Made by a program: the position numbers and the translations under genes. The notes under the pieces are model-generated. The model saw nothing but the letters and a program-made list of their open reading frames with translations, was not told the DNA's origin and made no database searches. A DNA stretch of 45,598 bases, taken from assembly GCA_036229005.1 (NCBI GenBank), contig JAZAMN010000045.1, forward strand, positions 1-45,598, read 5' to 3'. Below are positions 12,333 through 45,470 of this stretch, one piece after another; position 1 is the first letter of the stretch, and every line of letters begins with the position of its first letter. The stretch is from Myxococcota bacterium (GTDB lineage: Bacteria > Myxococcota_A > UBA796 > CAJQPC01).

Positions 12333-12376
12333 CCAGTTGACATTCAATCTATCGGTGTCAACTGGGGGGTGACAAG
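12333..12376 (-). promoter_or_regulatory. Putative sigma70-type promoter with overlapping inverted repeat
   Basis: Minus strand TTGTCA-N18-TAGATT, conserved with 17352-17395; CCAGTTGACA..TGTCAACTGG dyad. Confidence 0.5.
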
Positions 12377-12382
12377 CAAAAA

Positions 12383-13306: not shown

Positions 13307-13333
13307 GGGGGGCTCCGGGGGCGGGGGCCCGGA

Positions 13334-21684: not shown

Positions 21685-22851
21685 TCAGTAGCTCCAGGTC
21701 ATGCAGTGGAAGCGGTCCGTGGTGGGCTGCTCCACGACGTCGATCACCACCGGGCCCAGGTCGGGGTCGAGCTTGACCGTGACCACGTCGGCGACGCCGC
21801 CGCCGGAGGTGCCCGCCGGGCCGATCCAGTACTGGCCGTCCGCGGTCACGTCTCCGCGGACGCTGCCGCGGCCGTTGGTCTCGAAGGTCGTGCCGTCGAT
21901 CCAGGTCTCCAGGGTGCCCAGGAGCTCCATGTCGCCCGTGGCGTAGTCGATCTCCCAGAAGTCACCGGTGTAGTTGGACCAGATGATCCGGTCGTCGGCG
22001 GTGACGCCCATGTGGTGGGTCGCGGAGCGCTCGCCGTCGCCGACGTGCGTCACGGTGCCCGTGGCGGTGTCGATCCAGGTGAAGTTGTCGCCGTCCTCGG
22101 TCCAGCCCACGGCGGTGCCGTCCTGGAGGAAGCCCAGGGAGGGCATGGAGCCGTTGTCCAGCACGACCTCGACCGTGCTGGCGCCCGTGCCGGTGTCGAT
22201 GCTGATCAGGCAGAGGTCACAGCCGCCCACGTCCAGGCCGCTGTCGCCGGTGTAGCCGCGGGTGACGCCATAGAGCTTGCCGTCTGCCGGGTTCACCTGC
22301 AGGCTGCTGATGGCGTGGCCGGTGGAGCCGATCTCCGTGGCCACGCCGCTGATCGCGTCGTAGCTGTAGAGCACGCTGGCGGTCGACTCGTTGCCGTGGG
22401 TCACGGCGTAGAGGATCGCCGCGTCCAGGGTGCCGTCGCAGGCATCGCCCGCGCCGTCGAAGTCGCTGTCGCTCTGGTCGACGTTGGGCTCCTGCGGGCA
22501 GTTGTCCTGCAGGTTCAGCCAGCCGTCGGCGTCCATGTCCTGGGGCAGGCAGGTGATGGTCTCCACCTGGATCTCACCCTCCTGGAGCACGCCGTCACCC
22601 GCGGTCCCGCCGCCAGCGCCGTCGTCCACACCCAGCCAGGTCACCCGGTAGCCCTGGTCACAGCCGTAGCCGGCCTCCAGGTACACCTGGGAGTCACCCA
22701 GAGCGGAGTAGGCGTCGGAGCCGGAGCTGCCGTCGGAGCCGTCCGCACCCGCAGCGCCGTCTGCGCCCGCAGCGCCGTCCGCGCCGTCGGCCCCCGCGGG
22801 GCCCTCACTGCAGCCTGCCAGGAGCAGGCCCATCATCGCGATCGTGATCAT
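21685..22851 (-). CDS. Lipoprotein: collagen-like GAD/GAA run, TSP3-like motif, probable beta-propeller
   Basis: LAGC lipobox; G-X-Y repeats; DNCP..NVDQ.D.DFDG.GDACD; repeated xxD..TG blade ends. Confidence 0.8.
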   Translation of the reverse strand: MITIAMMGLLLAGCSEGPAGADGADGAAGADGAAGADGSDGSSGSDAYSALGDSQVYLEAGYGCDQGYRVTWLGVDDGAGGGTAGDGVLQEGEIQVETITCLPQDMDADGWLNLQDNCPQEPNVDQSDSDFDGAGDACDGTLDAAILYAVTHGNESTASVLYSYDAISGVATEIGSTGHAISSLQVNPADGKLYGVTRGYTGDSGLDVGGCDLCLISIDTGTGASTVEVVLDNGSMPSLGFLQDGTAVGWTEDGDNFTWIDTATGTVTHVGDGERSATHHMGVTADDRIIWSNYTGDFWEIDYATGDMELLGTLETWIDGTTFETNGRGSVRGDVTADGQYWIGPAGTSGGGVADVVTVKLDPDLGPVVIDVVEQPTTDRFHCMTWSY

Positions 22852-22861
22852 GGTCGACTCC

Positions 22862-24052
22862 TCAGTAGGCCCAGGTCATGGCGTGGAAGCTCAGACCTGC
22901 GGTGGGGGTGGCGCGCTCTTCGATCAGGGTGGGGTAGCCGTCCTGGTCCAGGGACACGATGTGGATGTAGGCGTCAGAGTTGCCGTAGGTCACGCCGCTG
23001 CCCACCCAGAAGTGCGCGTCGCCGGAGACGTCACCGCGGGCGCCGTTCTCGTACTCGCCTTCCCAGGCGGTGCCGTCGGTGGTGTACTCCAGCTCACCCA
23101 GGGACCACATGCCCAGCTCGGTGTCGATCTCCCAGAGCTCGCCGCCGCCGTTCATCCAGAAGATGCGGTCGTCATCGGTGGCGCCCATGTGGTGGCCCCA
23201 GGAGTTCTCGTACCAGCCGGTGTAGGTGATCTCGCCGGTGCTGGTGTCGATGCCGATGAACTCGTCGCTGTCCTCGGTCCAGCCCCAGGCGCTGCCGTCG
23301 CTGAGGAAGGTCAGGGAGGGGATCGGGGCCACCTGCAGGTCCGCGACCTTGGTGGCGGCGCCGGTGCTGACGTCCAGGGTGACCAGCGCGCTGTCCCAGC
23401 CGCCGACGTCCATCCCCGAGTCCCAGTCGGAGCCGCGGACGATGGAGTAGAGCTGGCCGTCGGCCGGGTTCATGGCCAGGGTGACCAGGGCGTGGCCGGT
23501 GTCGCCGATCAGCTCGTAGCTGCCGTCCACCACGTTGTAGCGGTACAGGGAGCTGCTGGTGCTGCTGTTGCCCTTGGTGATGGCGTACATGGGGGCGCCG
23601 TCGCTGCTGCTGTCGCAGGCGTCGCCCTCGCCGTCGAAGTCGGCGTCGCCCTGGTCGACGTTGGCGTCCAAGGGGCAGTTGTCCCAGATGTTGTCGAAGC
23701 CGTCCTCGTCCAGGTCGGGGGCCAGGCAGGTCAGGGTCTCGGAGTCGATCTCGCCGTCCTGCAGGACGCCGTCCGCCGCGGTGCCGCCGCCGTCGCCGTT
23801 GTCGACGCCCATGCGGATGACCTGGTAGCCGTAGGCGCAGCCGTAGGCGTCTTCGTAGAAGTCCTTGGAGGCGATCAGGGTCGAAGAGCCGTCCGCGCCG
23901 TCGGAGCCGTCCGCGCCGTCGGAGCCAGCCGCGCCATCGGCACCGGTCGCGCCATCAGCACCGTCCGCGCCGGCGGGGCCCTCACAGGCGGGCAGAGCGA
24001 AGAGAAGGGAAGCAGCGAAAAGGCCTGCGCTCAGGCCGGTCAGGGAACGCAT
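22862..24052 (-). CDS. Tandem paralog of 21685-22851
   Basis: LPAC lipobox, same domain order, shared C-terminus FH.MTW.Y; AAGGAG RBS before ATG 24052. Confidence 0.8.
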   Translation of the reverse strand: MRSLTGLSAGLFAASLLFALPACEGPAGADGADGATGADGAAGSDGADGSDGADGSSTLIASKDFYEDAYGCAYGYQVIRMGVDNGDGGGTAADGVLQDGEIDSETLTCLAPDLDEDGFDNIWDNCPLDANVDQGDADFDGEGDACDSSSDGAPMYAITKGNSSTSSSLYRYNVVDGSYELIGDTGHALVTLAMNPADGQLYSIVRGSDWDSGMDVGGWDSALVTLDVSTGAATKVADLQVAPIPSLTFLSDGSAWGWTEDSDEFIGIDTSTGEITYTGWYENSWGHHMGATDDDRIFWMNGGGELWEIDTELGMWSLGELEYTTDGTAWEGEYENGARGDVSGDAHFWVGSGVTYGNSDAYIHIVSLDQDGYPTLIEERATPTAGLSFHAMTWAY

Positions 24053-24162
24053 GGGGGTCTCCTTGGATGGGTGCCCCTTCATATCCCGGCAGGACGGGGC
24101 TTCGTAGGTGCTTCAGCCCAGCCTTCCGTGCGGTTCAACCCGGCTTTCCGGTGGGCGTGGGA

Positions 24163-28104: not shown

Positions 28105-28995
28105 GTGATGAACCTGCAGGACCTGCGGCTGTTTCTGGCCATCTCCGAGGCCTCCAGCCTGAGCGCGGCCGGCCGCAGCGTGGGCTTGGGGGCGAGTGCG
28201 TCGAGCGCAGCGCTCAAGCGGCTGGAGGCGCACACCGACACCCGCCTGGTGGAGCGCAGCACCCGGAGCCTCCGCCTGACCCCAGAGGGGCTGGCCTTCC
28301 TGGAGACCTGCCGGCAGGTGCTGCAGACCTGGGATCGGGGGCAGCAGGACCTGCTCCGCTCCCGTCAAGCGCTGCAGGGCCGCCTGCGGGTGGCTGGCCC
28401 CATGGACCTGGGAGAGCGGCTGCTGGGGCCCTGGCTGGCGGAGTTCGGGGCCCTGCACCCGAGCGTGGAGCTGAGCTTGTCGCGCTCGGACGCCTTCCAC
28501 TCCGTGCGGGCGATGGGGGTGGACGTGGCGGTGCGCTACGGGCGCCAGGACGACTCGAGCCTGGTGGCCCGCCTGCTGCACACCGGCAGTCGGGTGCTGG
28601 TGGCCTCGCCTGCCTACTTGCAGCGGATGGGCGCGCCGGAGCAACCCCAGGCGCTGGCCGAGCACCGCTGCCTGGGCTGGCTGCGCAAGGGGCGCCCCCT
28701 GGACCGCTGGGCGCTGCAGCGGGGGACCGAGCGGGCGATTGTGGACGTGGCCCTGACCCTGCGGGGCGACGGCGCGCTGGTGCGGCACTGGGCGCTGGCG
28801 GGGCACGGCATCGCCTACAAGAGCGAGCTGGACGTGCGGGAAGACCTGCGCGCGGGCGCCCTGCGGCGTGTGCTGCCGAGCTGGTCGGGGCCAGAGCTGC
28901 CGCTGTATGCCCTCACCCCCAGCCGCGCCCACCGGACGGCGCGTGTGCAGGCCCTGCTGGACTGGCTGGCTCAACGCCTGGGGACCCCACCCTGA
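28105..28995 (+). CDS. LysR family regulator (divergent from the aldo/keto reductase)
   Basis: SLSAAGR..SAALKRLE..RLVERSTRSLRLTPEG; DVAVRYG; VASPAYL. Confidence 0.95.
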   Translation: MMNLQDLRLFLAISEASSLSAAGRSVGLGASASSAALKRLEAHTDTRLVERSTRSLRLTPEGLAFLETCRQVLQTWDRGQQDLLRSRQALQGRLRVAGPMDLGERLLGPWLAEFGALHPSVELSLSRSDAFHSVRAMGVDVAVRYGRQDDSSLVARLLHTGSRVLVASPAYLQRMGAPEQPQALAEHRCLGWLRKGRPLDRWALQRGTERAIVDVALTLRGDGALVRHWALAGHGIAYKSELDVREDLRAGALRRVLPSWSGPELPLYALTPSRAHRTARVQALLDWLAQRLGTPP

Positions 28996-29014
28996 GCGGG
29001 GCCCCCGGCGGAGC

Positions 29015-32000
29015 TCAGGGCTGGTACTGCCCGGTGACCAGGGCGAGCTGCAGGGCAGCCATGTCCCGGGCCATGCGCTGGTTGAGCAGGCCGATGCGGG
29101 CCTGATCCAGCATGAGCTGGGCGTCGCTGACCTCCAGCCAGGTGCCGGCGCCGGCCGCGAAGGCCTGCTCGCTCAGGCGCAGGTTCTCGGTGGCCAGGGA
29201 CAGCTCCATCTCGACCGCGGCGAACGCGGTGGCGGCCTGCTCCCAGTTCTGCCACGCCAGACGGATGTCCTCGCTGGCGTCCAGACGGGCCTTCTGTGCT
29301 TCGTAGTCGGCGACTCGGAGTTGGGACGCGTATTGGCGGTTGGTCTGGAGCCGGTACCCTCCATCCCACAAGGTCCAGTTGGCGGACACCTGGAACATCC
29401 AGAACTCGTTCTGCCCCTGGAAGCCGGTGTTCTCGGTCCAGGAGTAGGTGAAGCGGGAGTCCACGGTGGGCAGCCAGCCGAGCTGGTCGGCGCGCTTTCG
29501 GTAGGTGGCGACCTCCATGGCCTTGTCCGCAGCGAGCACGTCCGGGCGGGACTCCACGGCGGCCATGGCCTGGTCCAGGCTGTCCACGGGGGCGGCGATG
29601 GGGCCGGGCATCTCCACCAGGCTGTCGGCGGGCAGGCCGGTCAGCTTGGCGAAGGCCTGCTCGGCGCTCAGGATGCGGGCCTCGGTCTCCAGGAGCTGGC
29701 GCTCGGCGCGGGCCAGGGCGAGCTCGGCCTGCAGGCCCACGATGGGGGGCGCGGCGCCGGCGTCCACCTGGCGGCGGGCGATGCTCAGGTGGTCCCGGGC
29801 GTTGGCCACGGAGTCGGTCGCGATGGCGTAGGACTCCCGGGCCACGACCAGCCCGTAGTAGGCCTGGGTGACCCCCACGAGGAGCTGGCTACGGGCGTAG
29901 GAGATCTGCTGGTTCACCTGCTCCCGCTGGGCGTAGGCGCCGCGCAGGCCGGAGAAGGCCACCGGGTTGAACAGCGGCTGCACCACCGAGACGTTGTAGT
30001 CAAAGTAGGAGAGCTGCTGGATGACCAGGGGCTCGGCGTCGTCCAGGGCGGCCTGCTCTTCGGCCTCGACCTCATCGAACACGGCCTCGGTGATGGCCTG
30101 CTCGGTGGGGTCGGTGGTGGTGGCCAGGAAGATGGGCTCCAGGGTGCTGGGGCGGAAGATCATCTCGCTCATGTCGAGCTCGATCTCCTGCTGGTTGCGG
30201 GTCCAGTTGGCCCCACCCACGACCCGGGGGGTCAGGGTGCTCCAGGCCATGGGGACGGCGGTCTGGGCCTGGAAGGCCTGCTCCTCCATGATCTTGAGGT
30301 CCAGGTTGGAGCCCTCGGCGGCCGCGATGGCGTCATCGAGGGTGACCAGGCCCTGGGCCTCTGCGGGCACGGAGAGGGCGAGACCGGCAGGGACCAGCAG
30401 CCAGGGCAGGACCTTGGCGACGCTGGGGGTGACCGGGGTGGGGGACTCGCTGGACTCCGACTTGCGGCCCACCAGGCGCTTGAAGAAGTTGGTGAAGTCC
30501 TCGCTCAGGGCGACCATGGTGGGGACCATGACCAGGGTGAGCACGGTGGCCACGGCCAGGCCGAAGGACACGGAGACCGCCATGGGGCCCCAGAAGTCCG
30601 CGCTCTCGCCGCCGGTGATCAGCTTGAACTTGGTGAAGTCGAAGGAGATGCCGGTCGCCATGGGGAAGAGGCCCAGGATGGTGGTGATGGCGGTGAGGAT
30701 GACGGGTCGGAAGCGGACCAGGCCCGCCCGCACCACCGCGTCCTTGAGGGCCATCCCCTCCTTCTGGCACTGGTCGACATAGTCGAGGAGGACGATGGCG
30801 TTGTTGACCACGACGCCCGCCAGGGAGATGACGCCCACGCCGGTCATCATGATGCCGAAGGGAGTGCCGGTGAGCAGCAGGCCCCACAGCACGCCGATCA
30901 GGGAGAGCATCACGCTCATCATGATGATGAAGGGGCGGGTCAGGCTGTTGAACTGGGTCACCAGGACCAGGAAGATCAGCAGCACGGCGATGCCGAAGGC
31001 CTTCATGAGGAACTCGGCGGCCTCCTGCTGCTCCTCGTTGGAGCCGCCCATGCCGAGCTGCACCCCCTCGGGGGCGTCGTAGTCGGCGATGAACGCGGCC
31101 ACGGCGGCCTGCGCGAGGTCCTCACGGGCGCCCTGCACCTCGGCGCTGATGGTCACGACCTTCTCGCGCTCCAGGTGCTTGATGGCGCCGGAGCCGCCGC
31201 GGGTCTCGAAGCTGGCCAGGGTGGACAGCGGGACCATCATGTTGTCCTTGCCGGGCACGCGCAGGTCCAGGATCGAGGGGATGTCCTGCTTGTAGGCGTC
31301 GGCCATCTCCACGACGATGTCGTACTCCTCGTCGCCGTCGCGCAGGGTGCTGGCCTTGGTGCCGGCGACCGCGGTGCGCACGGTGTTGGCCACGGAGGCG
31401 GTGTTGGTCCCCACCTTCTTGGCGGCGGCGCGGTCGACCTCCAGGCGCAGCTCGGGGCGGCCCACCTTGTAGTCGTCCTGGATGTCCACGATCGACCAGC
31501 TACTGCGGGGGTCGGCGCCGGGCTCGGAGCTGAGCTTGGCCAGCTCGCGCTGGAGCTCCTCGCTCACCTGGCCCAGGACGTGGAAGTCCTCGCCGGTGAT
31601 CTGCACCTCGATGGGCTTGCCGGTGGGCGGGCCCATCTCCTCCTTGTCGACCACGATCTTGGCGCCGGTGGCCTGGGCGGACACGGAGCGGATGCGGGCG
31701 ATGGCCTCGCTGCTCAGGCCCGCGCGGACCTCCTCGCCCTCGCGGGCCTTGGACTCGCTGGGCTTGAAGTCGATGGTCAGGCGCGCCGCGTGGGGCACGG
31801 AGCTGCCCATGGACAGACCGCCGCCGCCGCCGCCGGCGACGCCGACCTCGGTGACGTAGGTGTCCACGTCCGGCTCCTGGGCCAGGATGGCCTCGATCTG
31901 CCGGGCGATCTGGTCGGTCTTCTCGATGCGCGTGCCGTCGGGCATGGTGATCTGCACGAAGGCGCGGGCGGGCTCGGTGCTGGGGAAGAACTCGGTGCCG

Positions 32001-33670
32001 TGGTTGAACATCCCGTAGATGACGAAGGTCGCCACGAAGGAGCTCATGCCCAGGCCGAAGAAGCTCAGGTAGCGGTGGTCGATGGACCACTCCAGCAGCC
32101 CCTTGTAGCGCTTCATCACCCAGCCGTAGAGGCCGGTCTCGGGGATGGCCTCCTCGGACGGGACCTGGCCCTCCTCCAGCTTGGTGGCCTTCATCAGGGC
32201 GGCGGTGGCCGCGGGGATGACGAACACGGCCACGATCAGGCTGCTGGTCAGCACGATGATCAGGGTCTTGGGCAGGTAGCCCATGAACTTGCCCATGATC
32301 CCGCTCCAGAAGATGAGCGGGGCGAAGGCGGCCACGGTGGTCAGGGTGGAGGTGGCCACGGGCAGGGCCACCTCGGACACGCCGATGATGGAGGCCTCGC
32401 GCAGGGACTTGCCCAGCTCCACGTGCCGGTAGATGTTCTCCACGATCACGATGGCGTTGTCGACCAGCATGCCGAGCGCCAGGATCAGGGAGAAGAGCAC
32501 GACCATGTTCAGGGTGATGCCCATGGCCGAGAGCACGATGAAGCTCAGGAGCATGGACAGGGGGATGGCCAGGCCCACAAAGAGGCTGTTGCGGAAGCCC
32601 ATGAAGAAGAGCAGCACGCCCACCACCAGCAGCAGGCCGGTGATGATGTTGTTCTCCAGCTCGGAGACCATGGCCTCGATCTCGCGGCTCTGGTCGGCGA
32701 TGAAGGCGTACTGCACGCCCTCGGGCCAGTTCGCGGACTCGGCCTCCACGGTCGCCATGGTGCCCTTGGCGATGTCGACGATGTTCTCGCCGGTGCGCTT
32801 CTGGACGGAGAGGGAGATGGAGGGGGTGCCGTTCATCCGGGAGAAGGTCGCCCGGTCGGCGTAGCCGTCCACCACGCGGCCCACGTCGCGCACAAAGACG
32901 GTCTCGCCGCCCTGGTTCTTGATGGGCACCGCCTCGATGTCCTCGGCGGTCTGGAACTCACCGGGCACGCGCAGCAGGTAGTCGGCCTCGCGGGCGTCCA
33001 CGTTGCCGCCGGGCACGTTGACGTTCTCGGCGCTCAGGGCCCCCATGACCTCGCCGAAGCTGAGGTTGTACATGCGCATGCGGTCGGGGTTGAGCTGGAC
33101 GGAGATCTCACGGGTCAGGCCACCGGAGAGCTTCACCTCGAGCACCCCGGGGACCTGCCCCTCGATCTCGTCCTTGAGGTCCTCGGCCAGATCCTTGAGG
33201 CGCTCCTCGTCCATGTTGGACCCGTCGGGGTTGGTGCCCGTCATGGTCACGATCAGGATGGGGATGTCCGAGAAGGAGACCTCCTGGACCACGGGGTCCT
33301 CGGTGTCCTCGGGGATGTCGGCCTTGGCCGCGTCCACCTTCTCGCGCACCTTGGGCAGGGCCTCGTCGATGTCGATGTCGGGGTCGAACTCCAGCACCAC
33401 GGAGCTGGCGCCCTCGTAGGAGGTGCTGGAGAGCTTGTCCACATCCTTGAGATCCTTGAGCTTTCTCTCCATGGGCACCGTGACCAGGGTCTCGATGTCC
33501 TCGGGGGAGACGCCCGGGTAGATCGTGCTGACGACCACCACGGGGATGGGGATGTCCGGCGCGGCTTCCCGCGGCAGGCTCATGTAGGAGACGATGCCGG
33601 CGATCAGCACACCCACCACGGCGACCGCCACGGTGGTGCTGTGATCGACCAGCCACTTGGCCCAATTCAT
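29015..33670 (-). CDS. RND (AcrB-type) efflux permease fused in frame to a TolC-like outer-membrane factor
   Basis: YPGVSPEDIETLVT, GMLVDNAIVIVEN, RFRPVILTAITT (aa ~1-1065). After aa 1105: TLDDAIAAA, VVQPLFN, VTQAYYGL, RPDV, NWTLWDGG. Confidence 0.9.
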   Translation of the reverse strand: MNWAKWLVDHSTTVAVAVVGVLIAGIVSYMSLPREAAPDIPIPVVVVSTIYPGVSPEDIETLVTVPMERKLKDLKDVDKLSSTSYEGASSVVLEFDPDIDIDEALPKVREKVDAAKADIPEDTEDPVVQEVSFSDIPILIVTMTGTNPDGSNMDEERLKDLAEDLKDEIEGQVPGVLEVKLSGGLTREISVQLNPDRMRMYNLSFGEVMGALSAENVNVPGGNVDAREADYLLRVPGEFQTAEDIEAVPIKNQGGETVFVRDVGRVVDGYADRATFSRMNGTPSISLSVQKRTGENIVDIAKGTMATVEAESANWPEGVQYAFIADQSREIEAMVSELENNIITGLLLVVGVLLFFMGFRNSLFVGLAIPLSMLLSFIVLSAMGITLNMVVLFSLILALGMLVDNAIVIVENIYRHVELGKSLREASIIGVSEVALPVATSTLTTVAAFAPLIFWSGIMGKFMGYLPKTLIIVLTSSLIVAVFVIPAATAALMKATKLEEGQVPSEEAIPETGLYGWVMKRYKGLLEWSIDHRYLSFFGLGMSSFVATFVIYGMFNHGTEFFPSTEPARAFVQITMPDGTRIEKTDQIARQIEAILAQEPDVDTYVTEVGVAGGGGGGLSMGSSVPHAARLTIDFKPSESKAREGEEVRAGLSSEAIARIRSVSAQATGAKIVVDKEEMGPPTGKPIEVQITGEDFHVLGQVSEELQRELAKLSSEPGADPRSSWSIVDIQDDYKVGRPELRLEVDRAAAKKVGTNTASVANTVRTAVAGTKASTLRDGDEEYDIVVEMADAYKQDIPSILDLRVPGKDNMMVPLSTLASFETRGGSGAIKHLEREKVVTISAEVQGAREDLAQAAVAAFIADYDAPEGVQLGMGGSNEEQQEAAEFLMKAFGIAVLLIFLVLVTQFNSLTRPFIIMMSVMLSLIGVLWGLLLTGTPFGIMMTGVGVISLAGVVVNNAIVLLDYVDQCQKEGMALKDAVVRAGLVRFRPVILTAITTILGLFPMATGISFDFTKFKLITGGESADFWGPMAVSVSFGLAVATVLTLVMVPTMVALSEDFTNFFKRLVGRKSESSESPTPVTPSVAKVLPWLLVPAGLALSVPAEAQGLVTLDDAIAAAEGSNLDLKIMEEQAFQAQTAVPMAWSTLTPRVVGGANWTRNQQEIELDMSEMIFRPSTLEPIFLATTTDPTEQAITEAVFDEVEAEEQAALDDAEPLVIQQLSYFDYNVSVVQPLFNPVAFSGLRGAYAQREQVNQQISYARSQLLVGVTQAYYGLVVARESYAIATDSVANARDHLSIARRQVDAGAAPPIVGLQAELALARAERQLLETEARILSAEQAFAKLTGLPADSLVEMPGPIAAPVDSLDQAMAAVESRPDVLAADKAMEVATYRKRADQLGWLPTVDSRFTYSWTENTGFQGQNEFWMFQVSANWTLWDGGYRLQTNRQYASQLRVADYEAQKARLDASEDIRLAWQNWEQAATAFAAVEMELSLATENLRLSEQAFAAGAGTWLEVSDAQLMLDQARIGLLNQRMARDMAALQLALVTGQYQP

Positions 33671-33679
33671 GTCGGACTC

Positions 33680-34762
33680 CTAGTACTGGACCCGGCCGGC
33701 CACGCAGCACTCGCCTGCGCGCACGACCATGAGGGCATCACCGGCCGCGAGCTCGCGACCGCCTTGGCTGACGACGCGGTCGCCGTCCTGCAGACCGCTG
33801 GCGATCACCGCCTGATCCCGGACGAAGCGCTCGACCTCGACGGGCTTCCAGACGGCCACCCCGTTGTCCTCGACGAACACACCGGTCTCATCCAGCTTGG
33901 TGATGAGCCAGTCCTGGGGGATGGTGAGGGCGGTTGTGGAGAGCTCCCGGTCCAGCTCGACCCGACCGATCATCCCGGGCATCAGGCTGCCCTCGGGGTT
34001 GGCCACGTCGACCTCGACCGCGAAGGCCTTGGTCATGGGGTCGGCGGCGGGGGAGATGGCGGAGATGGTGCCGGAGAAGGCCCCGGGCACGCTCTGGCAG
34101 CGGAAGCGCACGCTCTGGCCCATGGACACCTGGGAGATGTCCCGGTCGGAGACGGAGACCTCCAGGGTCACGCGGTCGGTGCGGACCAGGCGGACCACCG
34201 GGGCGGAGGGGTTGGCGATCTCGCCCTCCTCCACGTAGACGTCCACCACCTGACCGGCGAAGGGCGCGCTGACCACGGAGCGGTTGAGCTGCAGGCGGGC
34301 CATCTCGGCGTTGGCCCGGGCGACCTTGGCCTGGGTCTCCACCGACAGGGCCTGCTGCTTGGAGACGGCGTCCCCGAGCTTCTGGACCCGCTGCCACTCG
34401 GCCTCGGCCTGCTGGGCCTGGGCCTCGGCGATCTCGTGCTGGTAGCGCCGGGTCGCCACGTCGATGCGGGCGAGCACCTTGCCCTTGGAGACGCGGTCGC
34501 CGGTGCTGACGTTGACGGCCTCGACGAATCCGCCGGCCGGGACCGCCAGGTTGGCGTCGGCCTTGGCGGCGACGGTGGCCGGGAGGCTCAGGGACACGGA
34601 GGCCTCGCCGGACTTGACGGCGGCGACCTCCACGCGGGTGCCGCCGATGTCGGGGAGCTCGGTGGCGCCCACGGGCTCGGCGTTTGCGGGGGCGTCGCTC
34701 TCGGCACCACAGGCCACGAGCAGCAGCAGGGAGGCGGCGGAGATGAGGGGGGAGGCTCTCAC
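33680..34762 (-). CDS. RND periplasmic adaptor (membrane fusion protein), lipoprotein
   Basis: LVAC; GDRVSKGKVLARID; VSAPFAGQV; LMPGM; GLQDGDRVV. Confidence 0.93.
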   Translation of the reverse strand: MRASPLISAASLLLLVACGAESDAPANAEPVGATELPDIGGTRVEVAAVKSGEASVSLSLPATVAAKADANLAVPAGGFVEAVNVSTGDRVSKGKVLARIDVATRRYQHEIAEAQAQQAEAEWQRVQKLGDAVSKQQALSVETQAKVARANAEMARLQLNRSVVSAPFAGQVVDVYVEEGEIANPSAPVVRLVRTDRVTLEVSVSDRDISQVSMGQSVRFRCQSVPGAFSGTISAISPAADPMTKAFAVEVDVANPEGSLMPGMIGRVELDRELSTTALTIPQDWLITKLDETGVFVEDNGVAVWKPVEVERFVRDQAVIASGLQDGDRVVSQGGRELAAGDALMVVRAGECCVAGRVQY

Positions 34763-35343
34763 GGGGTCACTCCGTGGAAGAAGATGGAGATCAAGCGGTC
34801 AAGGGTCTGCTCATCCAGCGAGATCTCCTCGCAGGAGGACGCGGTCATGGACGAGAAGACGCGGAAGTGCCAGATGCCCTGGAAGGCCAGGGCCAGGTCG
34901 ATGGGGTTCAGGTCTGCGCGCAGCTCTCCGCTGGCGATGCCCTGAGCGAAGAGCTCGGAGAAGAAGTGGGCGTCCCGGCCGACGATCTGGGAGACGTCGA
35001 TCTGCGGGCCGCTGCTGCCGGGGCTGAGCACGAGCCGGGTCACGAAGCGGTTGAACTCCGGGGCGGCCTGGATCTGCGCCAGGTGCAGGCTGCACACGTT
35101 GTGCAGGCGCTCCCGTACCGTGCGGTCCGTCTGGGCCAGGGTGCCCTGCATGAGGGCGTCGGCCTGGCTCAGCCGCTCGCTCAGGAGGGTCTGGAAGAGC
35201 CCCTCCTTTGAGCCGAAGTGGTAGTACAAGGTCGGCTTGGTGACCCCGGCCGCCTCCACGATCTGTCGCACCGAGGTCTGGGCATAGCCCTTCTCGGAGA
35301 AGAGTCGGATGGCGTGGGTCGCGATGCGCTCTCGAACGTCCAT
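34759..35343 (-). CDS. TetR family regulator of the efflux operon
   Basis: LFSEKGY..TSVRQIVEAAGVTKPTLYYHFGSKEGLF; GTGA overlap with the adaptor start. Confidence 0.95.
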   Translation of the reverse strand: MDVRERIATHAIRLFSEKGYAQTSVRQIVEAAGVTKPTLYYHFGSKEGLFQTLLSERLSQADALMQGTLAQTDRTVRERLHNVCSLHLAQIQAAPEFNRFVTRLVLSPGSSGPQIDVSQIVGRDAHFFSELFAQGIASGELRADLNPIDLALAFQGIWHFRVFSSMTASSCEEISLDEQTLDRLISIFFHGVTP

Positions 35344-35381
35344 ACTGCCTTTCGCCTCCGGCCCGGGCCGAGGTGGTTACC

Positions 35382-35426
35382 TACCGGTCGGTAAGGTCCT
35401 ACCGTACGGTAGGCTACCGGTCGGTA
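35382..35426. promoter_or_regulatory. Triple palindromic operator TACCGNNCGGTA
   Basis: Copies at 35382-35393, 35400-35411 and 35415-35426, upstream of tetR. Confidence 0.75.
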
Positions 35427-35472
35427 ATCCCCCCATCGGCAGGCGACCAGCCCACGTGCAACAAAAGTCACG

Positions 35473-37407: not shown

Positions 37408-37473
37408 GAAGGGGTCCTTGCTTTAAACCACGATAACCGCGGGGGTCTCCAACCCCGTGGTGTACTCCCTCCG

Positions 37474-40400
37474 ATGCTGGGCCCCTTCTCCCTCACCGAC
37501 ACCCTGGCCACCGGCGGCACCGCGACGGTGTGGCGCGCGGTCTACAGCGACGGCCGCCCGGGACAGGTCGCCCTCAAGGTCCTGACCGAAGAGCGCGCCA
37601 CGCGGCCCGAGGACCTCTCCGCGTTCCGGAGGGAGGTGCGGGCGGCGGCCAGGCTGAATCACCCCAACATCGCCAGCGTGTTGGACTACGGCACGGTACC
37701 GGATCCGGGCCCCGGCGAGGTCAGGCTGTCCGGCCTCAGCCCCGGCGCCCCCTGGCTGGCGATGGAGCTGGGCAGCGGCACCCTGCACCCCCACTGCGGC
37801 AAGCTGGCCTGGGTTCAGGCGCTGGAGGCGCTGGAGGCGCTGCTCTCCGCGCTGGCCCACGCCCACGCCCACGGGCTGGTGCACCGCGACGTGAAGCCCC
37901 GGAACCTGCTGCGGGTGGGGGAGCGCTGGAAGCTGGGCGACTTCGGCCTGGCCCACGTGCTGCCCGGCGCCGACGACACGCGCATCATCGGCACCCCCAG
38001 CACCATGGCCCCCGAGCACTTTGCCGGCGCCTGGCGCGACCACGGGCCCTGGACCGACCTGTACTCGGTGGGCTGCCTGGCCTGGCACCTGGTCTGCGGC
38101 CGCACCCCCTTCCACGCGGCCCGCACCCCCCTGACCCTGCGCGAGGCCCACAATAGCTGGCCGGTGCCCGAGCTTGAGCCCACCGGGCCGGTGCCGCCGG
38201 GGCTGGAGGCCTGGATCCGCCGCCTGATGGCCAAGCGCCCCCAGGACCGCCCGGCCTTCGCCGCCGACGCCCTGCACGCCCTGCGCGCCCTGGGGCCCGC
38301 CCAGCCCCTGCGCAGCCAGCCCGTGATGCTGGGGGCCGCCGACGCGGAGATGGCCACCGCCGAGCTCGACCTCGCGCCCGCGGACCTTCCCCAGGCGCTC
38401 GCGCCCACCGAGAGCGCCTGGCCGCCGCCGCCCTTCGCGCCCGACTGGCGCAGCGACCCCCGCCTGCCGCCCCCCGTGGGCCTGGGTCTGGTCGCCCTGC
38501 GCGCCCGCCCGGTGGTGGGCCGTCAGTCCGAGCGGGACCTGCTCTGGCGCACCCTGGGCCAGGTGGTGTCGGGCGAGGGGCTGCGCGTGGCCGGCCTGCA
38601 CGGACCTCTGGGGAGCGGCCGCTCGGCGCTGGCTGGCTGGCTGGCGATCGAGGCCCACGCCCGCGGTCAAGCGCGGGTCTTCCAGGCGCGCTTCGGCCCC
38701 GGCGAGGGCGGCCTGCGCGAGGCCGTGCTGACCAGCTTCCAGCTCCAGGGCCTGGACACCGAGGCCTGCGTGCACCGCCTGGCCCGGCTGCTGCGCCGCT
38801 GGAACCTGGAGCGCCCCGACCACGACGCCCGCGTGCTGGCCTCGCTGCTGCACGCCCCGCCCCCCGGCCGCGCCGCCCGCTTCGCCGCCGAAGAGCAGCG
38901 CGCCGCCCTGGTCCGGGTCCTGGCCGCCTGGGCCAATGAGCGCCCGGTGCTGCTGGTCCTGGATGAGGCGGGTGCGGGGAGCGCTGGGGCTGCGCTGGTC
39001 CACCTCCTTCGCCAGCGGGGTGCGCTGCGCATCCTGACCCTCTGGACCGCCCCCGAGGACAGGCTGCCCGCCGACCTGTCCCTGCACATCGGGCCCCTCC
39101 CCGAGGCCGACCTGGACCTGCTGCTGCGGGGGGTGCTGGGGCTGTCCCCCGAGCTGTCCGTGCAGGTGCAGGACCGCGCCCAGGGCAGCCCCGCCTTTGC
39201 CCTGCAGCTCGTCGAGGCCTGGGTGGAGCAGCGCGCGCTGGAGGAGAGCCCCAGCGGGCTGGCGCTGCGCCCCGAGCACACCGAGCTGCCCCCCAGCCTG
39301 CGGCGCCTGTGGCGCGCCCGCCTGGAGGCGCTGTTGGCCGAGCTGCCCGCCGCCGACGCGCGGGCGCTGGAGGTCGCCGCGCTGATGGACCGCCGCCCGC
39401 CGGTGTCGGCCTGGCAGGCGATCTGCGCGCACGCGGGCTGGGCCCCGTCGGAGCCCCTGCTGCCCACCCTGCTCCAGCGGGAGCTGCTCAGCGTCGAAGA
39501 CGGGGGCCTGCACTTCCCCCAGTCCTGGCTGCGCGAGGCGCTGCGCGAGCACAGCCAGGCCCAGGGGCGCTGGCCCATCCAGCACGCCACCCTGGCCGCC
39601 TGGCTGCGCGACGCCGGCCCGGAGCTGGCCGGTCCCCGCGGCCTGCACCACCTGGAGGCGGGCGACTGGGCGTCCGCGCTCGAGGACCTCTGCAGCGCCC
39701 AGGAGCGCGCGATCGCGCGCGGGCAGCTCACCCAGGCCGCGCTGCTGGACCCCCCGCGCACCCGCGCGCTGCGCGCCTGGAATCCGCCCCCCGAGCACCC
39801 CGCCTGGGCCCGCGACCTGCTGCTGCGCGCGCAGCTCGCCTTCGGCCGCGGGGACCAGGACGCAGGCCTCAAGCTGGCTCGGCAGGCCGTGCAGGCGGCC
39901 CGGCGGCTGGGCAACGCCGGCCTGGAGGCCCGCGCGCTGTTGGAGGGGGGCCGCCTGCTGCACCGCCGCGGTGAGCTCTCGCGGGCGCGCCGTTGGCTGC
40001 GCCGCGGGGTCAAGGCCGCCTTGGTCCAGGGGGACCGCAGCACCGCCGCCCACTGCCGGGAGCTGCTGGCCAACACCCTGGCGGAGCTCGGCGAGCTGGC
40101 CGCCGCCGAGCAGACCCTGCAGAGCGCCTGGGAGGACTACGAGGCCACCGGCGAGACCGTCGGCGTGGGCAGCGTGCACCTGGGCCTGAGCTTCCTGTGC
40201 CTGGCCCGGGGCGGGCTGGACGACGCGGAGGCACACGCCCAGGTCGCCCTGGAGCACTGCACCGGGGTGGGTGCTGAGCGCATGCGCTGCGCGGCGCTCG
40301 GGGTGCTCGGGGACGTCGCCCGCGCCCGCGGGGAGCCCGAGGCCGCCCGCCGCTGGTTCCAGCGCGCCCTGCGCCTGCACGCTGGCTCCGGCCGGCTCTA

Positions 40401-40761
40401 CGCCACCGCCCTGACCTGGCTGAACCTGGCCCTCACCGAGCTTGAGGCCGGCCAGGACACCGCCGCGCAGGCCGCCCTGGAGCAGGTGCAGCGCTTCCAG
40501 CAGGGGCAGGGCGCCGGCAACCTGCAGGCCCTGACCACCTTGGCGCAGGCCGTGGTCTCCGCGCGCGCCGGGGCCGCCGACACCGATCAGCGCTTCTCCC
40601 GCGCGCGCATCCGCCTGGAGCAGACCGGCCAGGTGCACCGGGACATCCACCTGCTGGCCACCCTGCTGGCCCAGGCCTGCGAGGCACAAGGCTGGACCCA
40701 GCTTGGTCAGCGGGCGCGTGACCTCGCTGATGCCCAGAGTGAGAGGTTGCCGGCGGGCTGA
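37474..40761 (+). CDS. Ser/Thr protein kinase - AAA/STAND-like ATPase - TPR protein
   Basis: VALKVL, HPNIA, HRDVKPRN, DFG, MAPE, DLYSVG; VVGRQSE, GPLGSGRS, LLVLDE, GSPAFA; TPR-like C-terminus. Start set at ATG 37474. Confidence 0.92.
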   Translation: MLGPFSLTDTLATGGTATVWRAVYSDGRPGQVALKVLTEERATRPEDLSAFRREVRAAARLNHPNIASVLDYGTVPDPGPGEVRLSGLSPGAPWLAMELGSGTLHPHCGKLAWVQALEALEALLSALAHAHAHGLVHRDVKPRNLLRVGERWKLGDFGLAHVLPGADDTRIIGTPSTMAPEHFAGAWRDHGPWTDLYSVGCLAWHLVCGRTPFHAARTPLTLREAHNSWPVPELEPTGPVPPGLEAWIRRLMAKRPQDRPAFAADALHALRALGPAQPLRSQPVMLGAADAEMATAELDLAPADLPQALAPTESAWPPPPFAPDWRSDPRLPPPVGLGLVALRARPVVGRQSERDLLWRTLGQVVSGEGLRVAGLHGPLGSGRSALAGWLAIEAHARGQARVFQARFGPGEGGLREAVLTSFQLQGLDTEACVHRLARLLRRWNLERPDHDARVLASLLHAPPPGRAARFAAEEQRAALVRVLAAWANERPVLLVLDEAGAGSAGAALVHLLRQRGALRILTLWTAPEDRLPADLSLHIGPLPEADLDLLLRGVLGLSPELSVQVQDRAQGSPAFALQLVEAWVEQRALEESPSGLALRPEHTELPPSLRRLWRARLEALLAELPAADARALEVAALMDRRPPVSAWQAICAHAGWAPSEPLLPTLLQRELLSVEDGGLHFPQSWLREALREHSQAQGRWPIQHATLAAWLRDAGPELAGPRGLHHLEAGDWASALEDLCSAQERAIARGQLTQAALLDPPRTRALRAWNPPPEHPAWARDLLLRAQLAFGRGDQDAGLKLARQAVQAARRLGNAGLEARALLEGGRLLHRRGELSRARRWLRRGVKAALVQGDRSTAAHCRELLANTLAELGELAAAEQTLQSAWEDYEATGETVGVGSVHLGLSFLCLARGGLDDAEAHAQVALEHCTGVGAERMRCAALGVLGDVARARGEPEAARRWFQRALRLHAGSGRLYATALTWLNLALTELEAGQDTAAQAALEQVQRFQQGQGAGNLQALTTLAQAVVSARAGAADTDQRFSRARIRLEQTGQVHRDIHLLATLLAQACEAQGWTQLGQRARDLADAQSERLPAG

Positions 40762-40832
40762 GGGTCTGGGGGGTGGGCTCAGGGCTTGGGGCCCTGGTCC
40801 GCTCTGCTCCTTCCGTGGCAAGCTCACGCCGC

Positions 40833-41975
40833 ATGCAGCCCCCACCCTCCGACTGGCGCGCCACCCTGCGCCTGCTGGCCATCGAGCACGCGCCGCTGCT
40901 GCTGCTGGTCCTGGCGCACCTGGGGCTGGGCTACGGGCTGCAGGCCGCCCTGGGTGCGCCCATCATGGAGATCGCCGTCTCCTACGAGGTGGTGAACCTC
41001 TTCGTCATCCTCTTCGCGGTGCTCTTCTTCTCGGGGCACGCGCTGACGAGCCTGCCCAAGGTCCCCGAGGGCCAGTCCGCCTTCCGCTTCATCTGGACCG
41101 ACCTGCGCACCCGCTGGCTGACCCCGCGGCGGCTGTTGGGCTACCTGGTCGTGCACCTGGCGCTGCCCTTCTTCATGAGCGCGTTCCAGTGCATCAAGAT
41201 CGCGATTCCGCGCTTTGTTCCGTTCTCTTGGGATGAGCGATTCCACCGCTGGGACCTGGCGATCCACGGCGGCCACATGCCCTGGGAGCTGCTGGGGCCG
41301 CTGAGCGGAGATGGCGCCACCCTCCTGCTGAACGTGGCCTACAACCTGTGGTTCTTCATCCTCTTTGGGCTGGTCGTGTGGCAGGGCCTCAGCGAGGACC
41401 GGGTCTTGCGCTTCCGCTTCCTGGCGAGCTTCCTGCTGGTGTTCATCCTGGGGGGGAACGTGCTGGCGATGCTGTGGTCGTCGGTGGGGCCCTGCTTCTG
41501 GGGCATGGCGGTGCCCGGCCCGGATCCCTACGCCCCGCTGATGGCGCGGCTGCACGGCATCAACGACGCGCTGGTCGCCCAGAACGGCGCCGAGGGCGTG
41601 CACTTGTGGTCCCTGGACGTGCAGGCCCAGCTCTGGGAGGTCTACGCCACCGGCGCCGTCGAGACCGTCGGCGGCATCTCCGCTATGCCCTCCATGCACG
41701 TGGCCAGCTCGGTGCTCTTTGCCTGCCTTGGCTGGGCCCACTCCCGCTGGCTGGGCGTGCTGCTGACCGCCTTCGCGGCGGTGATCCAGGTCGGCTCGGT
41801 CACCCTGGGCTGGCACTACGCGGTGGACGGGTACGTGGGGGCCTGCATCACGCTTGTGATCTGGTTCGGCGTGAAGCTGGCGGTGGAGAAGACGGGCTTT
41901 GGGCGGCTGCTCGCGGGGGGACCGGGGCCACGGGCTCTGAGTGAGCGGGGGGCTGGGGCTACGGTGCCTGAGTGA
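40833..41975 (+). CDS. PAP2 superfamily (PAP2_3/Aur1-like) membrane phosphatase or phosphotransferase
   Basis: SVGPCF, ISAMPSMHVA, GWHYAVDG; multiple transmembrane segments. Confidence 0.88.
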   Translation: MQPPPSDWRATLRLLAIEHAPLLLLVLAHLGLGYGLQAALGAPIMEIAVSYEVVNLFVILFAVLFFSGHALTSLPKVPEGQSAFRFIWTDLRTRWLTPRRLLGYLVVHLALPFFMSAFQCIKIAIPRFVPFSWDERFHRWDLAIHGGHMPWELLGPLSGDGATLLLNVAYNLWFFILFGLVVWQGLSEDRVLRFRFLASFLLVFILGGNVLAMLWSSVGPCFWGMAVPGPDPYAPLMARLHGINDALVAQNGAEGVHLWSLDVQAQLWEVYATGAVETVGGISAMPSMHVASSVLFACLGWAHSRWLGVLLTAFAAVIQVGSVTLGWHYAVDGYVGACITLVIWFGVKLAVEKTGFGRLLAGGPGPRALSERGAGATVPE

Positions 41976-42246: not shown

Positions 42247-43288
42247 ACCCCACGGGCCGGGGCGGCTGCTCGCCGCTCAGCCAGCCCGCCTGTTGGTACC
42301 AGCGGATCTGGTCGCTAAAGGTCTGCTCCACGGGCCGGAAGGACACGCCCAGCTCTCGGGCGCTGCGGCGCGGGTCGAAGTGCGTGCGGTCCCGCTCGTC
42401 CAGCATCCGGCGCACGCTGGCCCAGGAGAGCAGCGCGGGCTTGCCCGTGATGCGGGAGACGAGCTCCTGCACGACGGACACCAGCATCAGGGCCAGGGGA
42501 GGGACCTTGCGCGTGGGCGCGGGCTGGCCGCTGACCTGCTCCATGACCGCGAAGAGCTCCTGCGCGCTCAGGTGCCGGCCGGCCGCCAGGTAGCGCACAC
42601 CGGAGCGCCCCCGCTCGGCCGCTGCGAGCAGGGTCTTCGCCACGTCCCGGGCGTCCACCACCGAGAAGCTGGCCGGCGGCACCCCCGGCAGCTTGCGGCC
42701 CAGGTAGTCCATCGTGAACTGGCCGGCGGGGGTGGGCCCCAGGTCGCCGGGACCCACCATCCAGCCGGGCAGGACAAGGCTCAGGTGGGCCTGGGGGTGG
42801 CGGGCCAGGAACGCCAGCGCTGCCCGGTCGGCCAGCACCTTGGAGCGGTAGTAGGGGTCGTGGGCCTGGGCGTCCTCGCGCAGCATCTCCTCGTCGATGG
42901 GGGCGCCGCGGGGCCCGTGCAGCACGGCGATGGAGCTGGTGTGGACCATGCGCCGCACCCCCTGCGCATAGGCCGCCTCCAGCAGCTCGGCGGTGGCCTG
43001 CACGTTGATCCGCTCCAGCTGCGGCCAGTGGTTCCCGCCGCCGAAGCTCTCCCGGAAGTAGGCCGCGGTGTGGAAGAGCACGTCGACGCCGTCGAGCCGC
43101 TCCTGGAATCCCGGGAGATCGAGCAGATCGCCCACCACCACCTCCAGCGTGGGGTGCTCGGGCAGCAGGCGGCCGGCCTTGTCGGGGTCGCGGGCCAGGG
43201 CGCGCACTCGCCAGCCCTGCTCCAGCAGCAGCGCGCAGAGGTTGTTGCCCAAGAGCCCAGTGGCTCCAGTCACGAACGCGGTCTTCAT
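42245..43288 (-). CDS. NAD-dependent epimerase/dehydratase (extended SDR, dihydroflavonol-reductase-like)
   Basis: VTGATGLLG, FHTAAY, HTSS, YYRSK, VVDARDVA. Confidence 0.93.
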   Translation of the reverse strand: MKTAFVTGATGLLGNNLCALLLEQGWRVRALARDPDKAGRLLPEHPTLEVVVGDLLDLPGFQERLDGVDVLFHTAAYFRESFGGGNHWPQLERINVQATAELLEAAYAQGVRRMVHTSSIAVLHGPRGAPIDEEMLREDAQAHDPYYRSKVLADRAALAFLARHPQAHLSLVLPGWMVGPGDLGPTPAGQFTMDYLGRKLPGVPPASFSVVDARDVAKTLLAAAERGRSGVRYLAAGRHLSAQELFAVMEQVSGQPAPTRKVPPLALMLVSVVQELVSRITGKPALLSWASVRRMLDERDRTHFDPRRSARELGVSFRPVEQTFSDQIRWYQQAGWLSGEQPPRPVG

Positions 43289-43366
43289 CGGGTCTCCGAG
43301 GGGTTGGGTTCCCCCCGAGACTGCCCGCCACACCTCTTGCACAGAAGGGGCAACTCAGACATTCTG

Positions 43367-43384
43367 CTTTGCATTCCTGCAAAG
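43367..43384. promoter_or_regulatory. Candidate LysR binding dyad
   Basis: CTTTGCA-TTCC-TGCAAAG between the divergent SDR and LysR genes. Confidence 0.5.
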
Positions 43385-43397
43385 GCGAGGACACGTG

Positions 43398-44240
43398 ATG
43401 CCGGACTGGAGCTGGGCCGATCTGCGCCTGCTGATGGAGGTCTCCCGCCACGGCAGCCTCTCCCGCGCCGGGGAGGCCATCGGCAAGAGCGCCTCGACCC
43501 TCTCCCGCCGCCTGGACCGCTTGGAGGCCCAGGTCGGCCAGCCGCTGCTGCTGCGCACCCCCGAGGGCTGCACTCTCACTGACGCCGGCCGGGAGCTGGC
43601 CGCCGTCGCCCAGGACACCGACCGCGCGCTGCGGCGGGCCCACGATCGCCTGGAGCAGCAGCTCAGCGGCCAGGTGCAGCTCTCCTGTGGCGATGGCTTC
43701 GTGGCCTTCCTCACCCCGCTGATCGCCCGCTTCTGTGAGGCCCACCCTGAGTGCAGCGTGGGCCTTCTGGTGGACGACAGCTTCCTGCACATCGAGCGCG
43801 GCGAGGCCGACCTGGCGCTGCGCACCCTGCACCGCGGCGAGGCCTCCCTGGTCTACCGGGAGCTGGGCGGCATCCGCTACAGCCTGGCCGCCGCCCCCAG
43901 CCTGATCGCCCGCTTCACCGGGCAGCCGCTGGAGCGCTGGCCGCGCGTGGGCCTGCTGCCACCGCTGGACGGCCTCGGACCGCAGCGCGCCCTCTCCGTC
44001 CTCGGCCCCGTCGTGGTGCGCAGCAACAGCTTCTCTGCCCATCTGGACGCCGTGCGCGCCGGCGTGGGCCTGGGCGCCGTCCCCCTGGTCACCATGGAGG
44101 GGCTGCACCCGCTGCCCGGGCCCCCCTTGCCCACAGAGCCCCTCTACCTGGTGAGCCGTCGGCGCAGCGAGCTGGCCCCGCAGGTTCGCGCCTTTGTTGC
44201 CTTGTTGGTGGCGGAGATCCCGGCGTTGTTGGCGGGGTGA
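43398..44240 (+). CDS. LysR family regulator
   Basis: WADLRLL..GSLSRAG..STLSRRLDRLE..LLRTPEGCTLT.AG; EADLALR. Confidence 0.93.
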   Translation: MPDWSWADLRLLMEVSRHGSLSRAGEAIGKSASTLSRRLDRLEAQVGQPLLLRTPEGCTLTDAGRELAAVAQDTDRALRRAHDRLEQQLSGQVQLSCGDGFVAFLTPLIARFCEAHPECSVGLLVDDSFLHIERGEADLALRTLHRGEASLVYRELGGIRYSLAAAPSLIARFTGQPLERWPRVGLLPPLDGLGPQRALSVLGPVVVRSNSFSAHLDAVRAGVGLGAVPLVTMEGLHPLPGPPLPTEPLYLVSRRRSELAPQVRAFVALLVAEIPALLAG

Positions 44241-45470
44241 GGAGTCGGGGGGCGGGCCGCGAGGGGGCTCAGGTCTCAGGTATCGGGTATCGGTCATCAC
44301 GCCGCTCCTGGTCCCGACGCCCCGCCCCACCCGTCCGTGGCCCGCGCGCAGCGCCGGGCCCTCGCCGAGATGTCTCCCCAAGTCGGCTGCCACCTCCATC
44401 GGAGCCCGCCACTGCGCCATCGCCGGTCTCCGGTCCCCGGTCGCCTGTCGCCGTGAGGGGTCTCAGGTCTCAGGTATCGGGTCTCAGTCATCACGCCGCG
44501 CCAGCCAGACCCGTCGTCTGTGGGCGGACCAGGACGTCCATCCGGGGACCGGTGGCTGTCGTGGCCCGCGGGCAGCGCCGGGCCCTCCCCGAGCCGCCCT
44601 CCAAGTCGGCTTCCACCCCCATCGGAGCCCGCCACCGCGCCATCGCCGGTCCCCGGTCGCCTGTCCCCGGTCGCCGCGAGGGGTCCAGGTCTCAGGTCTC
44701 AGGTCTCAGTCATCACGCCGCTCCTGGGCCCAGCCCACCGCCCACCCGCCTGTGGCCCGCGGGCAGCGCCGGGCCCTCGCCGAGCCGCCCCTCCAAGTCG
44801 GCTGCCACCCCCATCGGAGCAAGCCACCGCGCCATCGCCGGTCCCCGGTCGCCTGTCCCCGGTCGCCGCGAGGGGTCTCAGGTCTCAGGTATCGGGTCTC
44901 AGTCATCACGCCGCACTGGGCCCAGCCCACCGCCCACCCGCCTGTGGCCCGCGCGCAGCGCCGGGCCCTCCCCGAGACGTTTCCCCAAGTCGGCTGCCAC
45001 CCCCATCGGAGCCCGGCCCAACGTCATCGCCGGTCGCCTGTCCCCGGTCGCCTGTCGCCGCGAGGGGGCTCAGGTCTCAGGGTTCGGGTCTCAGTCATCA
45101 CGCTGTGCCATCCAGCGCCGTTGTCTCTAAGCCGGACCAGGATGTCCATCCGGGGACCGGCGGCTGTCGTGGCCCGCGCGCAGCGCCGGGCCCTCCCCGA
45201 GGCGCCCCTCAAGTCGGCTGCCACCCCCGCCGCGAGCCCGGCCCAACGTCATCGCCGGTCGCCTGTCCCCGGTCGCCTGTCGCCGCGAGGGGTCTCAGGT
45301 CTCAGTCATCACGCTGTGCCAGCCAGCGCCGTTGTCTCCAGGCCGGACCAGGACGTCCATCCGGGGACCGGTGGCTGTCGTGGCCCGCGCGCAGCGCCGG
45401 GCCCTCCCCGAGACGCTTCCCCAAGTCGGCTGCCACCTCCATCGGAGCCCGCCACAGCGCCATCGCCTAT
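44241..45470. repeat. Tandem array of six 192-224-bp units of the MITE/REP-like family
   Basis: AAGTCGGCT marker at 44380/44603/44795/44987/45211/45423; TCTCAGG/TATCGGG heptamers at the junctions. Confidence 0.93.

Follow-up and report, generated by a model that had tools for sequence, protein, structure and literature searches.

The window analysed here, that is the whole stretch of 45,598 nucleotides of contig JAZAMN010000045.1 (Myxococcota bacterium, assembly GCA_036229005.1), contains on its minus strand an ORF of 1551 aa (29015..33670, ATG start) in which an RND permease, a linker and a channel of TolC fold follow one another in a single frame. It is the last gene of the operon tetR-mfp-rnd~omf, in which the mfp start overlaps the tetR stop. 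The next gene, a LysR (28105-28995), lies on the opposite strand, and the operon holds no separate channel gene. The features of the locus are the following:

35381..35427, no strand assigned: three palindromic boxes of 12-14 nt, TACCGNNCGGTA, upstream of tetR, a likely TetR operator to which the regulator would bind
34759..35343, minus strand: TetR-family regulator, first gene of the operon (TetR_N, E 1.9e-19)
33680..34762, minus strand: periplasmic adaptor (MFP) with a lipoprotein-type signal (…LLLVAC); TIGR01730 RND_mfp, 203.7 bits, cut-off 94.9
29015..33670, minus strand: RND permease, internal signal-peptide-like linker and outer-membrane factor in a single ORF, from the ORF and Pfam calls
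30503..33670, minus strand: RND permease domain, aa 1-1056, with GMLVDNAIV in TM4 and VNNAIVL in TM10
30416..30502, minus strand: amphipathic helix after TM12 and basic loop, aa 1057-1085, predicted to be cytoplasmic (n-region equivalent)
30368..30415, minus strand: K1086 and hydrophobic core, aa 1086-1101 (h-region)
30356..30364, minus strand: A1103-E1104-A1105, predicted SPase I site, with a putative cut after A1105
29018..30355, minus strand: outer-membrane factor, aa 1106-1551, predicted mature channel protomer of 49 kDa, from Pfam and the structural model
from Q1106 (+1), minus strand: predicted N-terminus of the mature channel, QGLVTLDDAIAAAEGSNLDLK

The Pfam family ACR_tran (PF00873) covers aa 6-1053 of the ORF (E 1.3e-211; 705.6 bits, cut-off 28; profile positions 4-1017 of 1021), and OEP matches two stretches downstream of the permease (E 3.3e-45; 154.6 bits, cut-off 22). 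The segment K1086-Q1106 corresponds to 30415-30353, and the predicted mature part, Q1106-P1551, comprises 446 aa. The description given in the initial annotation, of one 1551-aa ORF with a TolC-like domain of 446 aa behind the linker, is confirmed by the ORF, the Pfam matches and the coordinates, as is its remark that no ATG directly precedes the hydrophobic segment, there being no Met between aa 1053 and aa 1129. Elsewhere in the genome, nine further RND-like ORFs and six further channel-like ORFs were found by profile search, none of them fused.

The TACCGNNCGGTA boxes give three matches upstream of tetR for 0.01 expected, a number reached in none of 100 shuffles, and only four are present genome-wide, these three included. 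The same box is also found upstream of tetR in L106-L109, L082, L083, L113-L115 and L123, which include a distant fused clade. Since the boxes are nearly unique to this locus and conserved upstream of tetR in related loci, it is likely that the operon is autorepressed by its own TetR. The tetR gene occupies the same position in most of the fused loci tested. The fourth genomic box, at G000:C11:91441, may mark another target.

At the subfamily level, the permease belongs to PF00873 though its score falls short of the NCBIfam cut-off for each RND subfamily. This holds for the AcrB/HAE1 subfamilies (TIGR00915, 399.7 bits for a cut-off of 940; NF011706, 229.7 for 2150; NF000282, 458.1 for 1250; NF033617, 581.3 for 1250) and for the CusA/CzcA heavy-metal pumps (TIGR00914, 418.2 for 701.45). 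The designation "AcrB-type", proposed in the initial annotation, is therefore not retained. The nearest permeases of solved structure are MexK (E 1.7e-97) and MdtB (E 5.6e-94). AcrB-like pumps carry DD in TM4 and KN in TM10. The present permease has DN in TM4 (aa 404-405, 32455-32465) and NN in TM10 (aa 956-957, 30795-30810) in place of these, as does its whole subfamily, so the proton relay of this subfamily may differ from that of AcrB-like pumps.

The channel does not reach the cut-off of the TolC subfamily TIGR01844 (125.9 bits, cut-off 225); its two OEP repeats, TolC fold and four barrel strands are those of the TolC family. An AlphaFold2 model of aa 881-1551 (91-row alignment, mean pLDDT 90.2, pTM 0.62), which has no bearing on cleavage, comprises the final helices of the permease, a linker modelled with low confidence and, from aa 1111 on, the whole channel protomer. 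The pLDDT is low from aa 1071, the linker containing a single 10-residue helix (aa 1088-1097, pLDDT <50), and is mostly >85 in the channel, where the four barrel strands and both repeats are formed. The modelled channel matches TolC, OprM and CusC with E about 1e-16, and the domain keeps a long variable surface loop.

Homologues were searched with aa 1000-1551 as the query among proteins of 853-2715 aa; 7993 candidates were scored and yielded 127 hits, the best 120 of which were listed. At least 102 clusters besides the query, at 35-69% identity, are fused and carry both Pfam domains, which makes 103 with the query. Fused orthologues are present in 23 of 40 relatives and a split orthologue in one (G009), the remaining 16 having no close orthologue among the matches listed. 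A search of 300 genomes of the phylum gave 136 listed matches, from which 40 regions, mostly long open frames, were picked by hand; 29 of these are fused, and all 29 have the basic loop, the core and a small-X-small site. The ratio of 59 fused to 17 free loci in the locus set is not a frequency, as the regions were hand-picked; L036-L065 (short duplicates), L018, L106-L109 and L119 (duplicates) and L120 (gene in pieces) were left out before the counts. The fused set includes a Bradymonadales-type clade, fusions on DD/KN-type permeases (L072, L075-L080) and one on another subfamily (L035), and a related fusion is present in cultured, non-pathogenic Bradymonadaceae, P0121 (Lujinxingia litoralis), P0123 and P0151 (Persicimonas caeni), as named by NCBI. 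The pieces of the rnd-omf gene in L120 are either frameshifted or misassembled. Three further loci (L108, L113, L115) are titled Cognaticolwellia or Enterobacteriaceae, yet their proteins fall among Myxococcota-type sequences, and they are probably mislabelled bins.

RND permeases have 12 helices with both termini in the cytoplasm, and it is from this established topology that the loop after TM12 is placed inside. The linker that follows has the anatomy of a Sec signal peptide cut by SPase I, namely a basic n-region, an uncharged core, small residues at -3 and -1 and no Pro at +1 (for the -3/-1 rule and the definition of the lipobox, see PMC9360617). What it lacks is an N-terminal position with its own start codon, the segment being internal at aa 1086. 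The linkers of the 103 fused clusters were scored by rules, anchored on the first helix of the channel. A hydrophobic core (best 9-aa hydropathy >=1.8) and at least two K/R ahead of it are found in all 103, D/E in the core window in none, and the mean net charge passes from +1.7 before the core to -2.9 in the first 20 mature residues. Neither does any cluster have Pro at +1, nor a Cys between the core and channel helix 1, which led to the rejection of a lipoprotein route through SPase II.

A strict A-X-A ending 3-7 residues before channel helix 1 is present in 84 of the 103 clusters and absent from this register in 19. In shuffled sequences the count is 18.6 ± 3.8 when the linker is permuted and 26.1 ± 4.1 when the last 14 residues are (maxima 33 and 43, 2000 shuffles of each kind); the homologues being kin, the significance of this difference is overstated. 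The relaxed small-X-small site occurs in 103/103, against 60 and 71 in the shuffles, and an Ala stands five residues ahead of the anchor in 88/103. By columns, A1103 is Ala in 90% and A1105 in 88%, with about 26-34% for their neighbours, and conservation is 0.34 in the basic loop, 0.26 in the hydrophobic core and 0.29-0.31 in the columns next to the two alanines. In the 59 fused loci, the core and at least two K/R are present in 59/59 and a strict A-X-A within 22 aa in 50/59, a count for which no null was computed. On a crude summed membrane-helix scale, the core of the window scores 6.2 and the median core 3.9, against -2.6 to 3.4 for TM1-12, the helices of the permease being better membrane helices than the linker core. 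With two prolines and a hydropathy of 2.3, the core of the window is among the weakest of the 103. The free sister channels have an ordinary N-terminal signal which ends in the same register as the fused linker. By its anatomy the linker is a conserved signal, whose chemistry is kept while its sequence drifts, and it likely serves as the export signal of the channel itself.

We propose that the precursor, a chain of 168 kDa, is cut after A1105 by the SPase I of the cell, releasing the pump of the inner membrane (119 kDa) and the channel subunit (49 kDa), and we consider this very likely. The steps of export, cleavage and assembly that we infer are as follows. The RND part would be inserted co-translationally at SecYEG, the basic loop would hold the h-region N-in, and a thirteenth helix of signal type would thread the 446 aa downstream of it into the periplasm, where SPase I would cut after A1105. 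The freed chain would then trimerise in the outer membrane like the non-lipidated TolC and dock on the lipoprotein adaptor, and the pump would keep the spent helix as a tail, or have it trimmed. Conservation, register, geometry and repeated origin and fission give good support to the earlier suggestion of re-export of the channel by the extra helix and its release by SPase I, cleavage itself being predicted. The term "self-processing" used with it is not appropriate: the enzyme predicted to act is the SPase I of the cell itself (Peptidase_S26 has six matches at five loci in the genome), and nothing suggests self-cleavage. Of the hard-wired 1:1 stoichiometry, only the part concerning synthesis follows from the fusion; the latter is dispensable, as shown by the split orthologues L034 and L111 and the six other channel genes of the genome.

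The geometry of the complex bears on whether the channel has to be released. The membrane part of AcrB is about 5-6 nm thick. In the window's clade, a median of 10 residues, about 4 nm when stretched, separates the core from the first helix of the channel. Published reports give a length of about 33 nm for AcrAB-TolC in cells, in which no direct AcrB-TolC complex was seen (PMC6570770), and 14 nm for TolC, with a barrel of 4 nm and H1 in the equatorial domain at mid alpha-barrel (PMC8277102), the N-terminal helix running from the equatorial domain toward the membrane domain (bioRxiv 10.1101/2025.03.19.644130). It can be estimated that H1 starts roughly 18 nm above the inner membrane. A spacer of ~4 nm set against ~18 nm implies that the channel domain would have to be cut off if it functions as an ordinary channel, an argument with less force for the Bradymonadales-type clade, where the spacer after A-X-A has 15-72 residues. 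In the Bradymonadales-type fusions L066-L071 and L096-L105, 29-72 acidic, Pro/Gln-rich residues separate A-X-A from helix 1.

The same distances weigh on the possibility that the helix is an uncleaved thirteenth transmembrane anchor, with the channel tethered to the pump and either reaching the outer membrane or adopting a non-canonical periplasmic form. In favour of such a tether, one related clade has up to 50-72 residues of spacer following the helix. We nevertheless judge it very improbable, because the ~10 residues between the helix and channel helix 1 in the window's clade are far below ~18 nm, all four barrel strands and the long variable surface loop are kept, the conservation of A-X-A would be purposeless in an anchor, and the helix is weakly hydrophobic. 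It is also conceivable, though unlikely, that the chain is cut by another protease, periplasmic or intramembrane, or by SPase I in a slow or regulated manner, as is LtaS, so that a tethered precursor lasts. The slow release of LtaS by SpsB (PMC11898559), the proline-rich and weak core of the window and the several Peptidase_S26 loci, one of whose paralogues could act, are compatible with this. The conserved features are, however, exactly those of the -3/-1 rule (PMC9360617), and they stand in the register seen in free channels that have ordinary signals, which argues for the cut by SPase I.

Another alternative is separate synthesis of the channel, initiated at a start codon within the linker, with the full-length chain as a by-product. 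An in-frame ATG, GTG or TTG with a Shine-Dalgarno-like match of at least four bases precedes the core in 11 of the 59 fused loci, and a Met in 14 of the 103 proteins. The former is the background level: of 2809 windows taken from the RND part as controls, 14% contain such a start, and free channels have it in 10 of 17. In-frame ATG within 17 codons before the core is found in 9/59 fused loci, against 36% of the 2809 controls and 14/17 free channels. In the window itself there is no in-frame ATG, GTG or TTG with a Shine-Dalgarno-like match in these 17 codons, and the fused chain would be made anyway, with no stop codon between the domains. An internal translation start was accordingly rejected, and we give it very little credence.

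The remaining reading, an artefact of assembly or a stop codon recently lost in a single strain, is already refuted, and its probability is practically nil. It drew on three same-genus genomes, which at first showed one TGA within the match; a stop inside the genes of these relatives was rejected, as the TGAs are terminal stops of ORFs open for 1557-1572 codons. Contigs from four runs of three studies were aligned to 28900-33800. The junction is bridged by independent contigs: record 9 of X2 (10,927 nt) covers 28907-33800 with 14 substitutions and no gaps, record 17 of X3 covers 28900-32459 with 13 substitutions and no gaps, and record 3 of X1, which is possibly the source sample, covers 30198-31549. 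No indel is listed across this interval in any of them. All 25 listed strain substitutions are synonymous, 24 of them at third codon positions, and 102 other clusters at 35-69% identity are likewise fused. The sequencing runs that contain most of the stretch are marine. In the RNA runs, X15 gave no match to the locus, X12 two short exact pieces, both outside the junction, and X13 pieces of a relative at ~90%; among the pieces listed from these three runs, none bridges the junction.

With regard to known systems, the operon has the same three components and folds as the tripartite RND pumps AcrAB-TolC, MexAB-OprM, MexJK and MdtABC-TolC, here with a TIGR01730 adaptor and a local TetR; in those pumps the permease and the channel have separate genes, whereas here they form one ORF. 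Unlike OprM and CusC, the channel has no lipobox. Fusion as such was already present in annotation, as initially stated: JGI named several of the fused homologues [quoted passage not shown], and Atlas contains clusters of ~1460 aa with PF00873 and PF02321 whose commonest taxon is Bacteroidota. These CusA/CzcA-TolC fusions, known here from cluster annotation, have the same domain order and length class, but a different RND subfamily. Two plasmid searches, and a search for OEP in four plasmids of Bacteroidota and in one other genome, returned only free channels and no fused Bacteroidota sequence.

The single ORF, with its internal signal placed after a polytopic membrane domain, has the arrangement of FbcH and LtaS. 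FbcH of Bradyrhizobium japonicum, the cytochrome b-c1 precursor, is reportedly encoded by one gene and split into two subunits at an internal signal behind a polytopic protein; both products stay in the inner membrane, unlike the channel considered here. LtaS of Staphylococcus aureus is a multi-pass membrane protein cut internally by a type I signal peptidase, as predicted here: SpsB cuts between Ala217 and Ser218, which releases the outer domain (PMC11898559). The cleavage of LtaS inactivates one enzyme, whereas the predicted cut would mature two subunits for two membranes. No published study of RND-channel fusions was found in a literature coverage that includes few subscription journals and no supplements, nor in the accessible parts of a 2021 review and of PMC10434189. 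The parts of tripartite pumps, annotated RND+OEP fusions and an SPase I cut within the polytopic LtaS were thus already known; what the locus adds is a quantified conservation of the signal, evidence that fusion and fission recurred within one phylum, a geometric argument that speaks against a tether, and carriers of a related fusion that are in culture.

At the evolutionary level, the TGA of the permease overlaps the ATG of the channel in the split pair of G009. This pair (L034) is sister to the fused L019 in both the RND tree and the channel tree (branch values 99 and 98, both starred) and is nested among fused rows; in the simplest reading, it is apparently a fission that reused the internal segment as an ordinary signal. 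In the quick channel tree, a clade of eight further free channels lies within the fused ones. A single clade of the 16 fused rows within a 26-row subset is rejected (p-AU 1.4e-49; LG+G4, quick tree, unrooted), and the starred branches force 5-6 changes of state. Fusions on other RND subfamilies (L035; L072, L075-L080) have the same linker design. We read these data as pointing to at least three origins of fusion, the count being a minimum since it comes from the quick channel tree and a 97-row RND FastTree with long-branch warnings for L035. A fusion would probably have arisen by loss of the RND stop codon and of the channel's start codon in an mfp-rnd-omf operon, an event that seems to have happened more than once and to have been reversed.

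In L031 (5960-6090, G001:C25), an unrelated two-permease operon, the permease stop, one codon and the channel ATG follow each other in the same frame, an arrangement that shows a route to fusion, one base change away. In the unfused permeases L116 (7100-7280), L117 and P0110, TM12 is followed by one more hydrophobic segment, with which the protein ends; in L116 and L117 this segment is followed by a stop and then by an in-frame free channel with its own signal. These segments are possibly remains of fission or a duplicated signal.

A broader hypothesis can be put forward, tentatively, and we regard it as less probable than not: RND-channel polyproteins would be a recurrent and reversible design, with at least three origins in the phylum on different RND subfamilies, in which a barrel subunit of the outer membrane leaves co-translationally from the tail of a 12-helix inner-membrane protein and its release by SPase I beside the pump couples the amount, place and timing of channel and pump assembly, rather than the outcome of neutral stop-loss. 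Bacterial polyproteins cut by signal peptidase have rarely been published, and in this case one precursor would supply two membranes. If the proposed processing is correct, Sec and SPase I would be able to pass on a barrel subunit of the outer membrane from the end of a transporter with 12 helices, which would constitute a natural test of the choice of export route. Many genes named "RND permease" or "TolC family protein" would then encode two proteins, and efflux inventories and structure predictions of these chains of 1500 aa would mislead. Fusion and fission of the same gene pair would also offer matched natural pairs for testing coupled synthesis in pump assembly. The processing is directly testable in the cultured Bradymonadaceae that carry a related fusion.

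FG-GAP repeats and metal-binding motifs like those of MopE also occur in the window, in two large proteins of secreted type (1320 and 1336 aa) at 8362-17344. Two long minus-strand ORFs, 37423-40845 (1140 aa) and 42315-44420 (701 aa), have no Pfam match at E 0.001. Proteins with TSP_3 and collagen repeats are encoded at 5620-7431 and 21685-24082.
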